A stretch of DNA of 64,000 nt. It comes from a virus. Below the pieces are notes generated by a model. The model ran no database searches. It had not been told where the DNA came from and worked only from the letters and a program-made list of their open reading frames with translations. A program made the position numbers and the translations under genes. Within the stretch, counting starts at the first letter, position 1. Each line of letters begins with the position of its first letter. Below, in pieces: positions 60,228 to 64,000 of this stretch. The stretch spans positions 133,425 through 197,424 of IMG/VR virus record IMGVR_UViG_3300032116_000013; one strand, 5' to 3'.

Positions 60228-60260
60228 CTGTGGGGGCAGTTCTTGCCCCCACAGTTTATT
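60228..60260 (+). terminator. Rho-independent terminator
   Basis: 11-bp stem CTGTGGGGGCA / TGCCCCCACAG followed by TTTATT. Confidence 0.85.
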
Positions 60261-60288
60261 TGACAGAGACTAAATGCACATATATAAT
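60260..60288 (+). promoter_or_regulatory. Perfect sigma70 consensus promoter driving the dioxygenase/glycosyltransferase cluster
   Basis: TTGACA-17 nt-TATAAT, with GAGGT RBS before ATG 60315. Confidence 0.85.
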
Positions 60289-60314
60289 AGAACACAAGAA
60301 AGAGAGGTGTTCTC

Positions 60315-61676
60315 ATGACTAAAGTTATAGTTGCAAGGCAAAAATTAGATTGTTCGCATTTGCTTGGACAATTTTTAGACGAATCACATTATGATGTTTT
60401 GGTCGAAGAAGACACTGACTGTTATCAAAAAGCAGACTGCGATCCTACATCGATGTCTAATTGCAATCAAGAAAATTGCGCTGACTGCACTCAAATTAAA
60501 ACGAAAGATGAACGTAAAGTTGCATTTATTTTTCGTAAGAACTTTTTCACCAAGGAAGAACAAGAACAAGCCTATATCGGACTGCGTGAGGCTGCTACAC
60601 AATCACAAAATCGCGGATTGGCGGCAGGACCAAAAGGTTCAACTTGTTTAGGTCGAGAATGGGTAAACGAAGTCCAACTTCGCGCTCTTGACTTTTTTAA
60701 GAAGCAAGAAGAAAATAGCGTAATTGAAATTGATGTACAAAAAGAAATTGATTCTATCAAAGAAAAATATTCTAATACTCAAAGCACTCGCGGCTTAGTT
60801 TGGTTGGCTGCTAAAGTCAAAGAAGATAATTTCAATTTTGATAATTGGTTGAAGGAAGTTGTAAATCTTTCTATAGCAGAAAGGAAACATGAAGCAAATG
60901 AAGTTTTTGAAACGTATATTTCAGACACAACCTACGCAAATCCTGTTTTTTCTGGAATTGCTGGCTGGTTTGATCGGTATCCTCGCATTCCTTATGGGCG
61001 CGCAACTTCTTATACACAGCATTCATTCGATAAATTTAAACTTTCTTTCCCGTTTCTTCAATCTCTAAACAAAGGATTCAAAGAACTTCTACCATGGCGA
61101 TGGCAGAATCAAAAGAATGCTATTGATAAAATTGATCCAGCATTTGTTGTTCCTGGAACAGTGTTCACTACAATTACGGTGAACAAAACATTTAGAACAG
61201 CAGCACACTATGACGCAGGTGACTTCGCAGATGGTCTTTCAAACCTACTTGTACTTTCAAATAATGGCAACTATTCTGGTGGCTATTTGGTTTTCCCTGA
61301 GTACCGTATCGCGGTCAACGTAAGACCAGGCGATTTGCTTCTCGTGAACAATCATGAAATAATGCATGGAAATACACCGATTGTTTTGAATGATAATGAG
61401 GCTGAACGTATAAGTTTAGTTTGCTATTTGCGAGAAAAAATGCTAGAATTAGGGAGTAAGCAGTACGAAGATATTCGTTACCAGTTTGTAGAGTCTCGCC
61501 GCAAGAATCCAGAGCATCCTATGCAACGTCGTCTTTGGAATGGTATTTCAGAAGGTATGTGGGACTCTCAAGAATGGTACGATTATCTCGAGAAGCATGG
61601 TGGTAAGAAGATGGTTGAGAAATATCATCCTAAAGCATTTGAAAAAATTTCAACTCTTGAAGACCTTTTTGGGTAA
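60315..61676 (+). CDS. TET/JBP-family 2OG-Fe(II) 5-methylpyrimidine dioxygenase
   Basis: FTTITVNKTFRTAAHYDAGD (HxD), HEIMHGNTP (distal His) and ERISLVCY (2OG-binding RxS) match the TET/JBP double-stranded beta-helix layout. Confidence 0.8.
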   Translation: MTKVIVARQKLDCSHLLGQFLDESHYDVLVEEDTDCYQKADCDPTSMSNCNQENCADCTQIKTKDERKVAFIFRKNFFTKEEQEQAYIGLREAATQSQNRGLAAGPKGSTCLGREWVNEVQLRALDFFKKQEENSVIEIDVQKEIDSIKEKYSNTQSTRGLVWLAAKVKEDNFNFDNWLKEVVNLSIAERKHEANEVFETYISDTTYANPVFSGIAGWFDRYPRIPYGRATSYTQHSFDKFKLSFPFLQSLNKGFKELLPWRWQNQKNAIDKIDPAFVVPGTVFTTITVNKTFRTAAHYDAGDFADGLSNLLVLSNNGNYSGGYLVFPEYRIAVNVRPGDLLLVNNHEIMHGNTPIVLNDNEAERISLVCYLREKMLELGSKQYEDIRYQFVESRRKNPEHPMQRRLWNGISEGMWDSQEWYDYLEKHGGKKMVEKYHPKAFEKISTLEDLFG

Positions 61677-61679
61677 TAT

Positions 61680-63011
61680 ATGAAAATATTGACTGTCGTT
61701 CATGATTTCAATAACTTCGGTGGTATCATTTCTCATACTGAGCAATTGATTGCTGGCTTCAAAGACCTCGGACATGAAACTGGATTTGTCTATCTTCGTA
61801 GCACAAAAACTGGTGGTAAGTTCGCTGAAGATTCAGAATTAGAAGGATATGATATTGGTGTTGGAACTGGTATTCCTGTTCATCAGGGTAAAGGTTGGCG
61901 AGGTGAATACTTGTCGTTCATCAACGACAATGACGTCAACAAGTTTATAAATCTTGCTAATCAATATGATATTGTAATCTGGCAGTCTATCTTTGGATTC
62001 AAGTGTCAAGATTCAGAAGGTAAACAGTCTTGGCTTCGTATGTTCAAAGACGTAAAAGCGAAGCATGTTGTAATTGTTCATGATGGAAACCTGCGCAAGA
62101 ACTATCCCTGGATTCATCATCTTCGTCCATATATCGCTGGTCTTGCTTGCGTTCATCCTAGCGCCTACAATCAGGCTGCTGCGATGCAGATTCCTCGCGC
62201 ATTGATTCTGAATCCACAGGATATAACTCGTAAGCAAGGAACATCTTTTGATGAGAAAACTGACACAATCTTCTCGCTTCAGACGTTCAAACGATGGAAG
62301 CGTGTTGATGATCTTGTAGCAGCAGTGCCATATATCTACGGTCAAGTAATTATTGCTGGTGATGGAATTGAACGTGCTTACATGTCATCAAAGGATAAAT
62401 GTAAGCCTGAATATTATTGTACACTAGATCGTGATCCTCAAGCATCTGAGAATAGAGTTGGTAAGCCGATCTGGCAAAATGCTCTAGACAAGGGTATGAA
62501 GTATATTGGATTTGTGTCAGAAAAGAAGCGTGATGAAATTTTGAGTCATAGTAAATTCCTATTAGATCCTTCTTGGTCTAAGACTTATGGTGAACACTTC
62601 AATCGCGTAGTTATTGATGCAATGCTAATGGGTGTTGTTCCGATTGCTCGCAATCTTGGCGTCTCTGATAATGAGAAAGGAGTCGGTCTACTCAAGCCAG
62701 GTAAGAACTACTTGATGATTCCTTGGGATGCAACACCTAAACAGTTTGGTGATCTTTGTAATAAGTTCTTGATGATGCAACCATTTGATTATGGTAAGAT
62801 TGTTGCCAACAACTGGGAATTCGTAAAGCAATTTGATCGAAAGAAAATTGCATCAGAATATGTTGCTTTTGCTAACGAGATTTTGCCAAATACTGAAACA
62901 GGCAAATATGATGAATCTCTCAATGATACAGTTGATTCTGTTTGGGCTGATCACTTTAAATTTCCGCAAAGATTGAATGTTACAAGTACATTGGAAGATC
63001 TTTTCGGTTGA
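61680..63011 (+). CDS. GT-B fold glycosyltransferase (GT4-like)
   Basis: MKILTVVHD..GGI N-terminus, FKRWKRVDDLVAA, GFVSE, EHFNRVVIDAMLMGVVPI (E-x7-D/E motif). Confidence 0.75.
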   Translation: MKILTVVHDFNNFGGIISHTEQLIAGFKDLGHETGFVYLRSTKTGGKFAEDSELEGYDIGVGTGIPVHQGKGWRGEYLSFINDNDVNKFINLANQYDIVIWQSIFGFKCQDSEGKQSWLRMFKDVKAKHVVIVHDGNLRKNYPWIHHLRPYIAGLACVHPSAYNQAAAMQIPRALILNPQDITRKQGTSFDEKTDTIFSLQTFKRWKRVDDLVAAVPYIYGQVIIAGDGIERAYMSSKDKCKPEYYCTLDRDPQASENRVGKPIWQNALDKGMKYIGFVSEKKRDEILSHSKFLLDPSWSKTYGEHFNRVVIDAMLMGVVPIARNLGVSDNEKGVGLLKPGKNYLMIPWDATPKQFGDLCNKFLMMQPFDYGKIVANNWEFVKQFDRKKIASEYVAFANEILPNTETGKYDESLNDTVDSVWADHFKFPQRLNVTSTLEDLFG

Positions 63012-63052
63012 CTATATAAAGAGTGGTTTGAATTTTATACTTTGGAGTTAAT

Positions 63053-63871
63053 ATGCAATTACAAATAAAGGTAGAAGATCTACGCAAAAAGAAATTGTTC
63101 GTGGCTACGCCTATGTATGGCGGTATGTCTCACGGAATGTTCGTCAAATCATGTTTAGACTTGCAGTCTGCTTGTACTCAGTATGGAGTTCAAGTTAGAT
63201 TTTCATTCATTTTTAATGAGTCTCTGATTACTCGCGCAAGAAATTATCTTGTAGATGAATTTCTTCGTGCTGACGACTTTACCCATCTTTTATTCCTGGA
63301 CGCTGATATTCACTTTGATCCTAGGGACGTTATTGCGCTATTGGCGTTGGATAAAGATGTCGTTGGGGCGCCATATCCTAAGAAGTCAATTAAGTGGAAT
63401 TCAGTTAAAGATGCAGTTAAGAAAAATCCAGAAATCAGTTCAGCAGAACTAGAAAAAGTTGCTGGCGATTTTGTGTTTAATCCTGCTCCAGGAACTGAAA
63501 AATTCTCAGTAGCCGAGCCTATTGAAGTTCTAGAAATCGGAACTGGATACATGCTTATCAATCGCGAAGTCTTTTCGAAGATGCAGCAGGCATTTCCGAT
63601 GATTCGCTATAAGCCAGACCACGTTGGACAGGCTAATTTTGATGGCTCACGTTATATCCATGCTTACTTTGACACTGTAATTGATTCTGCTGATTCTATC
63701 ACAGGTGGTGGCTCAGATCGCTACTTGTCTGAAGATTACATGTTCTGTCAAATGTGGCGTAAGATTGGCGGTAAGATTTGGCTCTGCCCGTGGATGAAGA
63801 CACATCATATTGGAACTTATGCATTTACTGGTGATATGCCAGCAGTTGCTAACTACGTCGGTTCACTCTAA
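63053..63871 (+). CDS. GT-A fold glycosyltransferase (GT2-like)
   Basis: LFVATPMYGG, SLITRARN, LLFLDADI (DxD), GTGYMLI.R.VF, RYLSEDYMFC..WRKIGGKIW. Confidence 0.75.
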   Translation: MQLQIKVEDLRKKKLFVATPMYGGMSHGMFVKSCLDLQSACTQYGVQVRFSFIFNESLITRARNYLVDEFLRADDFTHLLFLDADIHFDPRDVIALLALDKDVVGAPYPKKSIKWNSVKDAVKKNPEISSAELEKVAGDFVFNPAPGTEKFSVAEPIEVLEIGTGYMLINREVFSKMQQAFPMIRYKPDHVGQANFDGSRYIHAYFDTVIDSADSITGGGSDRYLSEDYMFCQMWRKIGGKIWLCPWMKTHHIGTYAFTGDMPAVANYVGSL

Positions 63872-63886
63872 TACTGAGATTTTGTT

Positions 63887-64000
63887 ATGATTATTGGACT
63901 TGTCGGTAATATCGGAAACGGTAAAGGTACAGTTGCAGACATTCTTGTTGATCGCCATTCTTTCATTAAAGAAAGTTTTGCCAACAGTGTGAAGGATGCG
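63887..64000 (+). CDS. Deoxynucleoside monophosphate kinase (T4 gp1-like), 3' truncated
   Basis: Hand translation gives MIIGLVGNIGNGKGTVADILVDRHSFIKESFANSVKDA (P-loop plus SFA..VKD). Confidence 0.75.
   Translation, partial: MIIGLVGNIGNGKGTVADILVDRHSFIKESFANSVKDA

Follow-up and report, generated by a model that had tools for sequence, protein, structure and literature searches.

Described systems and the locus under study

Kinetoplastids provide a demonstrated case of a TET-type enzyme in the making of glycosylated 5-hydroxymethyluracil (5hmU); the literature found does not yet describe this in any phage's own DNA. In the kinetoplastid pathway, base J is made in two steps, in which thymine (T) is oxidized to 5hmU (JBP1/2) and 5hmU is then O-glycosylated by JGT, of the TAGT family (PF20691). 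The operon examined here combines a TET/JBP Fe(II)/2-oxoglutarate (2OG) dioxygenase with two glycosyltransferases (GTs) of different folds, GT-B and GT-A. It lies at the end of the window, a stretch of 64,000 nucleotides that closes an IMG/VR virus record of 197,424 bp (IMGVR_UViG_3300032116_000013, positions 133,425 to 197,424) classed as complete by CheckV, and its source is a T4-like myovirus. The gene order is TET/JBP dioxygenase, GT-B, GT-A, deoxynucleoside monophosphate (dNMP) kinase, and sliding clamp (gp45). The operon quite probably represents a DNA hypermodification module in which T would be converted to 5hmU by the dioxygenase and a sugar would be added by GT-B, with both enzymes docked on the clamp and GT-A functioning separately. 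Its main features in the window are as follows.

60315..61676, + strand: TET/JBP (5-methylpyrimidine dioxygenase [5mYOX]) Fe(II)/2OG dioxygenase, 453 amino acids (aa), PF12851; predicted thymine dioxygenase acting on DNA
61680..63011, + strand: GT-B (GT4-like, Glycos_transf_1), 443 aa, PF00534 at 30.1 bits (cutoff, 26.4); predicted DNA 5hmU glycosyltransferase
63053..63871, + strand: GT-A fold glycosyltransferase, 272 aa, DxD motif D83/D85; weak GT-A family matches by sequence, confident structural model
63887..64000, + strand: 5' part of the dNMP kinase (T4 gp1-like), first 38 codons in the window and the rest at C1:127-709

Like base J synthesis, the predicted pathway follows a two-step logic of oxidation and O-glycosylation, and the closest sister phages hold a TAGT/JGT-family enzyme in the position that is occupied here by GT-B. 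It differs from base J synthesis in that the transferase is a GT4-like GT-B, with no PF20691 member in the genome, and in that no J-binding or SNF2 domain is present. With the phage T-oxidizing 5mYOXs of clades C1 and C2 (TET89, 5mYOX97, and 5mYOX176; PMC8256090, PMC13229309), the locus shares the TET/JBP fold with its HxD...H...R signature, the lack of a neighboring cytosine-C5 methyltransferase (C5-MT), a neighborhood of GT or GATase/P-loop kinase/amino-acid:DNA transferase (AADT) genes (GT-B here, the others in orthologous loci), and a predicted postreplicative conversion of T to 5hmU. In contrast to those enzymes, the present one is longer (453 versus ~290 to 300 aa); its N-terminal half contains large inserts, and it has a Cys-rich loop of variable occurrence. 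It also carries a polymerase-like C-terminal clamp tail, a feature that PMC8256090 and PMC13229309 do not mention. The phage also differs in that its genome contains no ParB (PF02195) and in that the enzyme is encoded within the replication module of a T4-like myovirus; if the dioxygenase is a member of the phage T-dioxygenase subclasses, it would be of a ParB-independent kind.

The T-even pathway of hydroxymethylcytosine (hmC) glucosylation (gp42, alpha-GT, and beta-GT) resembles the predicted one in its T4-type replication module, in the use of early genes for DNA sugar modification, and in the precedent of a DNA GT that binds gp45. The differences are that the hydroxymethyl group would be made here on the polymer by a dioxygenase rather than prereplicatively by a thymidylate synthase (TS) homologue, that the predicted target is T and not C, that sequence similarity to alpha-GT or beta-GT is lacking, and that the putative tether is a gp43-like C-terminal peptide found also on the oxidase. 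Metavirome clusters of TET_JBP with 5-HMUDK and aGPT-Pplase/AADT genes (PMC8989533) have a dioxygenase orthologous to the present one and draw on the same pool of modular genes, and one phage (G006) has the AADT version at the same locus as the operon studied here; in the present operon, a glycosyltransferase replaces the kinase/AADT/GATase set, and the predicted adduct is accordingly a sugar rather than an amino acid.

The kind of system is already published, as phage TET/JBP enzymes without a methyltransferase, with T oxidation predicted or shown and with GT or AADT neighbors (PMC8256090, PMC8989533, PMC13229309, 10.1101/2023.12.21.572611), and the preprint 10.1101/2023.12.21.572611 explicitly suggests 5hmU as the product of many GT-linked 5mYOXs. 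Text searches of those papers did not find the long T4-type enzyme, the GT4-like GT-B partner, the exchange of sugar and amino acid chemistry in one slot at a fixed locus, or the polymerase-like clamp tail. A complete genome with a clean TET and GT-B pair and no methyltransferase offers a good test case for TET-made glycosylated 5hmU in a phage.

The TET/JBP dioxygenase and its predicted substrate

A profile search against Tet_JBP (PF12851), which the initial annotation had proposed as a check, placed the dioxygenase well over the cutoff (E = 1.9e-24; 86.2 bits against a cutoff of 34.9, and 88.7 bits by six-frame search). The HxD...H...RxS signature claimed in that annotation was located at the following positions.

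61206..61214, + strand: HxD iron-binding motif H298-Y-D300
61365..61415, + strand: distal iron-binding His H351 and 2OG-binding Arg in R365-I-S367

In the profile search, H298, D300, H351, and R365 were paired with the AHRD, H, and RISLV segments of TET2. More than 2,600 homologues of the dioxygenase were found. H298, D300, H351, R365, and S367 were invariant in an alignment of 25 orthologues, and the signature was retained in 170 of 171 orthologues. Replacement of H298 by Tyr was considered as a lineage trait and rejected, as Tyr occurred only in one cluster representative (P0002, 85% identical) and the other 170 orthologues had His.

The AlphaFold model of the dioxygenase (predicted local distance difference test [pLDDT], 80.6) matched the DNA-acting TET enzymes over residues 1 to 395, with Z scores of 18.9 for TET2 (root mean square deviation, 4.1; 262 residues aligned), 18.4 for NgTET1, 17.8 for CcTet, and 17.6 for CMD1; the next-best structural matches were AlkBH3, AlkB, and FTO (Z ≤ 13.8), and Foldseek gave an E value of 2e-9. 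A protein or small-molecule hydroxylase, the outcome that the initial annotation had named as contrary to its hypothesis, is not what these comparisons point to (Z of 17 to 19 for TETs versus ≤13.8 for AlkB/FTO); as modeled, the dioxygenase is predicted to be a nucleic acid TET. The ~150 residues that it has beyond the published 290- to 300-aa phage enzymes are inserts inside the fold, with large ones in the N-terminal half, and form no separate domain. The N-terminal strands of the model belong to the TET fold, and the TET2 and NgTET1 alignments begin at residue 1. A ParB-like domain fused at the N terminus was considered and rejected, with no Pfam match on residues 1 to 245. One of the inserts is rich in cysteine.

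60420..60488, + strand: variable Cys-rich insert with five Cys, approximately residues 36 to 58; model pLDDT, 40 to 67

This insert is an insertion/deletion polymorphism, present in 76 and missing from 94 of the 171 orthologues. The five-Cys loop recalls the Cys-rich region of animal TETs and may be a zinc knuckle. The homologues in Caulobacter phage Cr30 and Stenotrophomonas phage DLP6, which together with phage C48C1 are the closest cultured relatives for the operon genes, carry the label "SNF2 DNA repair protein," which is a misannotation.

Judged from gene content, the dioxygenase most likely oxidizes thymine in phage DNA to 5hmU. No C5-MT (PF00145) was found anywhere in the complete 197-kb genome, so that the earlier remark that the window lacks a methyltransferase extends to the genome as a whole. 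PF00303 or another TS-family enzyme that makes hmC, hmU, or 5-methylcytosine (5mC) nucleotides was not found in the complete genome, and no member of the dCMP methylase/hydroxymethylase family was found there either. With neither a C5-MT nor a TS-family modifier in the genome, thymine is left as the sole abundant 5-methylpyrimidine in the phage DNA.

The neighborhoods of orthologous genes were compared in 51 IMG/VR loci with dioxygenase orthologues (49 to 85% identity), which were retrieved and their neighbor genes clustered; gene contexts were drawn from IMG/VR loci only. In most lineages, the dioxygenase gene is followed by genes for a GATase, a GNAT- or amidoligase-like protein, AADT (PF18724), and a 5-hmdU DNA kinase-type P-loop kinase (PF18751), and orthologues with 54 to 68% identity directly adjoin GATase, AADT (PF18724), and Ploopntkinase3 (PF18751) genes. 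GATase, AADT, and P-loop kinase are enzymes of 5hmU-based thymidine hypermodification, and Lee et al. inferred that the TET_JBP genes of such clusters substitute for dUMP hydroxymethylase (PMC8989533). In phage Cr30 (L012:7001-13474), the TET homologue is encoded near AADT (E = 1e-52), a weak TAGT-like protein, and an inositol-1-phosphate synthase. Conversion of T to 5hmU has been shown for phage 5mYOXs that have no methyltransferase gene beside them (PMC13229309; TET89 in PMC8256090).

The initial annotation had left the substrate as either thymine or 5mC made elsewhere. The genome without PF00145 or PF00303, the orthologues located beside 5hmU machinery, and the T-oxidizing, methyltransferase-less phage 5mYOXs together favor the first part of that proposal, and 5mC is held unlikely. 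The premise that such oxidases usually lie next to a C5-MT does not hold, as this arrangement accounts for only ~6% of mined phage 5mYOX pathways (PMC13229309). The case for 5hmU as the product is strong but indirect.

The GT-B glycosyltransferase and the exchangeable slot

In addition to PF00534, matched in its C-terminal Rossmann domain, the GT-B protein matched PF13692 (27.5 bits against a cutoff of 27). With regard to an E-x7-E-type motif, its consensus, GEHFNRVIVDAM, gives E305-x7-D313, with G304, H306, N308, and R309 invariant. A total of 472 full-length GT-B homologues were found. The GT-B gene was directly 3' of the TET gene in every related contig that reached far enough (~45 contigs), and among 57 loci retrieved it was apart from the dioxygenase gene in only three relatives (36 to 38% identity). 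A tblastn search with GT-B against 50,697 deposited phage records gave no match, and PDB sequence searches with GT-B and GT-A returned nothing useful. Neither GT matched T4 alpha-GT (PF11440), beta-GT (PF09198), or TAGT/JGT (PF20691) at E ≤ 0.1, and no NCBIfam model matched the TET/JBP, GT-B, or GT-A protein. Searches of the phage genome itself recovered neither TAGT (PF20691) nor AADT.

Across the lineage, the order of genes is conserved as MoxR-like AAA5, winged-helix (wHTH) protein, TET, an exchangeable slot, GT-A, dNMP kinase, and gp45. The slot was found with four kinds of content: GT-B (the present phage and the ~45 contigs); TAGT (PF20691) of the JGT and T2/T6 family (L014 to L021, the closest sisters); AADT with a kinase (L022) or, in G006, GATase and, beyond ~2.5 kb of unassigned sequence, AADT and kinase; and two genes with no assigned family (L019). 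GT-B replaces known DNA-acting transferases at the same position and is therefore predicted to act on 5hmU in DNA, where, by this positional comparison, it most likely adds a sugar. Through the slot, phages would keep 5hmU as a constant entry step and trade the chemistry that completes it, sugar or amino acid, an exchange relevant to the evasion of restriction and CRISPR and to the search for new DNA-modifying enzymes for biotechnology.

In another lineage (L024:10223-14381; also L025 and L029), a TET-TAGT pair is followed by genes for a DruA-like protein (Druantia, PF14236), a 365-aa protein, and homologues of CsgF and CsgG (curli secretion); curli components and a DruA-like protein beside TET-TAGT are an odd set for a phage.

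C-terminal tails and the sliding clamp

The dioxygenase and GT-B end in the same eight residues.

61650..61673, + strand: dioxygenase C-terminal tail STLEDLFG, putative peptide for docking on the gp45 sliding clamp; same residues as in the tail of GT-B
62985..63008, + strand: GT-B C-terminal tail STLEDLFG, putative clamp docking peptide; divergent forms in orthologues, e.g., SSLDSFFA and AGLDEFFG

Among the 1,132 open reading frames (ORFs) of the genome, only those of the dioxygenase and GT-B matched the strict tail pattern. The tail resembles the end of the phage's own gp43 DNA polymerase (ETLDCFFS), and gp55 has GLEKFV near its C terminus. With varied spelling, the motif was found in 105 of 120 TET orthologues and in 107 of 118 GT-B orthologues; all 136 GT-A relatives lacked it. 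In the other cassettes, the tail was carried by TAGT, AADT, and the GNAT-like protein and was absent from GATase, the kinase, gp41, and the dNMP kinase.

The acidic-hydrophobic C termini of T4 gp43, gp55, and gp33 are interchangeable gp45 ligands (PMC2988020), and T4 alpha-glucosyltransferase binds gp45 (Sommer 2004; PMC13216743). The tails of the present enzymes share with the T4/RB69 epitopes (PMC2988020) the form of a short acidic-hydrophobic peptide at the extreme C terminus (ETLDCFFS in the phage's own gp43, STLEDLFG in the two enzymes); they differ in being borne by DNA-modifying enzymes and in being known from sequence and prediction. When TET residues 414 to 453 were modeled together with the gp45 trimer, the complex scored 0.56 (best of three controls, 0.02), which offers weak support. 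Of 80 solved complexes, 58 reached the mark applied, as did 2 of 110 mismatched pairs, and scores of ≤0.60 belonged to only 7 of those 80 solved complexes and to both of the mismatched pairs that passed. Three runs shared at least 53% of contacts, with a partner pLDDT of at least 42. A similar clamp-peptide complex (RB69) has already been solved, and the passing score may reflect likeness to it or memory of it.

On the basis of the motif and the modeled complex, it is probable that the tail serves as a clamp tether. The sharing of a polymerase-like tail also provides an independent marker of GT-B working on DNA. A broader proposal, which we hold roughly in balance, is that hypermodification in these phages is a clamp-borne toolbelt, in which the oxidase and the transferase in the slot (GT-B, TAGT, AADT, or the GNAT-like protein) each carry a gp45-docking peptide and act, on clamps that stay behind the fork, during replication instead of freely after it. 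If true, it would explain how a pathway that works on the polymer covers the whole genome fast enough. O'Toole et al. 2026 described it as a mystery why phages choose postreplicative over prereplicative modification (PMC13229309). The shared clamp tail suggests a testable answer to how postreplicative modification keeps pace, namely, that the enzymes ride the replication clamp.

In the mechanism proposed, the dioxygenase would oxidize thymine in polymerized phage DNA to 5hmU, and GT-B would glycosylate the hydroxyl of 5hmU with a nucleotide-sugar as the donor, giving a base J-like product that would protect the DNA against nucleases of the host. The acidic-hydrophobic tails of the two enzymes would bind gp45 clamps that remain on freshly replicated DNA, such that modification would follow the fork. 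GT-A would more likely be an older enzyme with a role of its own than a second transferase of sugar to DNA.

Possible sugar supply

Sugar-nucleotide enzymes, for which the initial annotation had recommended a search of the rest of the genome, are present in two cassettes.

C1:25807-29028 (L004:6807-10028): dTDP-sugar cluster directly after gp43-uvsX-gp41, consisting of a 204-aa unassigned gene, RmlB, RmlA, and a divergent RmlD-like reductase
C1:12772-19990 (L003): ten-gene operon upstream of gp43, consisting of a 2OG oxygenase, two GT2 genes, a MobA-like nucleotidyltransferase, a cupin, a RuBisCO-like protein, Methyltransf_24, two unassigned genes, and a ROK sugar kinase

RmlB (TIGR01181, 397 bits against a cutoff of 365) and RmlA (TIGR01207, 426 bits against 361) both scored over the NCBIfam equivalog cutoffs. 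The rml cluster followed gp41 in all 80 IMG/VR loci recovered with RmlA; the gene after RmlA varied, and an RmlD-like gene was detected in about half of these loci. In more distant lineages, the whole TET cassette lies directly after the gp41 helicase gene (L026 to L061; gp43-uvsX-108 aa-gp41-TET). Because the rml cluster here fills the position of the TET cassette elsewhere, the site after gp41 looks like a recurrent island for modification genes.

The rml cluster co-occurred with GT-B in one genome (G001) and with the AADT version of the cassette in another (G006). Specificity of the rml cluster for GT-B-type phages was considered and rejected, as G006 has rml together with the AADT/kinase cassette, and since rml also accompanies that version, a link between rml and DNA glycosylation is only a possibility. 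The rml cluster and GT-A were both present in three genomes and both absent from four, a pattern confounded by phylogeny and by the incompleteness of most contigs. Host UDP-glucose is one possible donor, and a dTDP-6-deoxyhexose produced by the phage RmlA and RmlB is another; the latter, which would give a rhamnose-type analogue of base J, is speculative.

GT-A and alternative explanations

The initial annotation had described the two GTs as being of different folds, and this description agrees with a profile match for GT-B over the PF00534 cutoff and with a GT-A model of high confidence (pLDDT, 96) containing the DxD motif. The best structural matches of GT-A were STIV A197 (E = 6e-9), Mnn9, LH3, and ColGalT1, and its invariant residues are R63, D83, D85, E227, D228, and H252. 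The family is very large, with 7,922 representatives that include giant-virus proteins. Several homologues (P0243, P0244, P0248, P0276, and P0299) are split by one or two LAGLIDADG inteins, elements usually found in highly conserved, important enzymes. In others (P0269 and P0286), a PLOD-type GT domain is fused to the protein.

From the presence of two GTs, a disaccharide had been suggested, and one alternative is that GT-B and GT-A work one after the other on a single 5hmU, the first sugar being added by one and extended by the other in the manner of alpha-GT and TAGT in T2/T6, to give a disaccharide or branched glycan. Within one early operon, the two genes are flanked by those for the dioxygenase and the dNMP kinase, and they occur together in ~45 contigs; GT-A is a bona fide DxD GT-A, DLP6 and Cr30 have both TET and GT-A, and in the small number of long contigs compared, the presence of GT-A goes with that of the rml cluster. 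This sequential scheme is nonetheless unlikely, and the suggested disaccharide is not borne out by the distribution of GT-A. The gene keeps its place beside the dNMP kinase gene when the slot holds AADT and kinase (L022 and G006) or other genes (L019), and it is found upstream of gp45 also in phage phiM12, which has no TET match and one ordinary-scoring thymidylate synthase; moreover, the clamp tail is missing from all 136 GT-A relatives, and the breadth of the family, with its giant-virus members and PLOD-GT fusions, points to a general viral GT. Because it persists whatever the slot contains, occurs in the TET-less phiM12, and lacks the tail, GT-A is held to be ancestral and is probably an older, separate resident of the replication module, independent of TET.

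Several observations weigh against the proposed module of dioxygenase and GT-B, and those that concern the GTs favor a second alternative, in which only the dioxygenase acts on DNA (with 5hmU or a further-oxidized uracil as the final product) and both GTs glycosylate something else, such as virion proteins, the host envelope, or a small molecule, being merely cotranscribed. GT4 enzymes usually have lipids or glycans as acceptors, and GT4-type GT-B enzymes and the present GT-A family normally work on lipids, glycans, and proteins. GT-B has no detectable sequence similarity to T4 alpha-GT, beta-GT, or TAGT, and neither GT resembles the known DNA GTs in sequence. The genome also encodes further GT2 enzymes, for a total of at least four GTs, and the two sugar-activation cassettes, all of which may serve non-DNA glycans. 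Against this alternative, which is decidedly improbable, stand the linkage of GT-B to the dioxygenase in 57 loci save three relatives at 36 to 38% identity, its substitution for TAGT and AADT in the same slot, its polymerase-like clamp tail, conserved across orthologues of 52 to 88% identity, and its position as an early gene within the replication module. The points that bear on the remainder of the module are that the dioxygenase is ~150 aa longer than the characterized phage T-dioxygenases (290 to 300 aa), that the prediction of clamp binding is weak, that gene content and neighborhood are the basis for the predicted substrate, product, and sugar, and that some ParB-less clade C1 enzymes were inactive in Escherichia coli assays (PMC13229309).

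A third alternative, that the substrate is 5mC supplied by a host Dcm-type or an unrecognized phage methyltransferase and that 5hmC is made and then glycosylated as in methyltransferase-5mYOX-GT pathways, is very improbable: all phage 5mYOX-GT glycosylation pathways experimentally validated so far do act on 5hmC (10.1101/2023.12.21.572611; PMC8256090), phage T-dioxygenases also oxidize 5mC to some degree (PMC13229309; TET89), and a Methyltransf_24 gene with no assigned target lies at C1:17261-17920, but the complete genome has no PF00145 and no dCMP methylase/hydroxymethylase family member, the orthologues are wired to 5hmU-specific AADT/kinase machinery, and host methylation gives sparse sites that would afford poor protection.

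Transcription unit and genome context

The proposed module is encoded in a transcription unit that begins at a terminator-promoter junction.

59890..60201, + strand: winged-helix protein, 103 aa, conserved upstream neighbor of the dioxygenase; HTH_39, E = 7e-4, under the cutoff
60228..60254, + strand: intrinsic terminator hairpin directly before the promoter, 12-bp stem with 8 GC pairs, followed by a T run
60260..60288, + strand: sigma-70 early-type promoter TTGACA-N17-TATAAT, 12/12 match to consensus

The perfect sigma-70 promoter, dioxygenase, two GTs, and dNMP kinase reported in the initial annotation were all recovered in place. The promoter is the sole site with ≤1 mismatch in the 64-kb window, for which the chance expectation at that threshold is 0.75. 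Both hexamers were perfect at 49 to 61 nucleotides (nt) before the ATG in 36 of 81 related loci, in which the spacer was divergent, and the retention of the hexamers while the spacer diverges indicates that the promoter is under selection and not a product of chance. The intergenic gaps in the operon are 3, 41, and 15 nt, followed by a 14-nt overlap, and no terminator-like site was detected on the + strand between the genes. The small wHTH gene is the last of the preceding transcription unit, and the order AAA5 (MoxR/CobS-like), wHTH, TET was retained in ~50 related contigs. Farther upstream (55367-59160), a 771-aa protein (phrog "peptidase," CobT-like) and a MoxR/CbbQ-type AAA5 ATPase (CobS-like) precede wHTH-TET and are syntenic in most relatives.

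The record has a 126-bp terminal overlap, its final 126 bases being identical to its first 126, and the operon resumes at base 127. The full-length dNMP kinase (231 aa) matched PF21448 (E = 3.6e-10) and has a P-loop at its N terminus; the genes after it are gp45, gp44, gp62, and regA. Across the record ends, the downstream order is T4 gp1-type dNMP kinase, gp45, gp44, gp62, RegA, dUTPase, Hsp20, dCMP deaminase, and 2OG oxygenase, and gp43, UvsX, and gp41 are found farther along the genome. A megablast search of the operon locus against phage records gave no match. Apart from the TET/JBP enzyme, the genome encodes two more 2OG-Fe(II) oxygenases, neither of them TET-type, which are prolyl hydroxylase-like (PF13640) and are located at C1:5803-6405 and C1:12772-13524.

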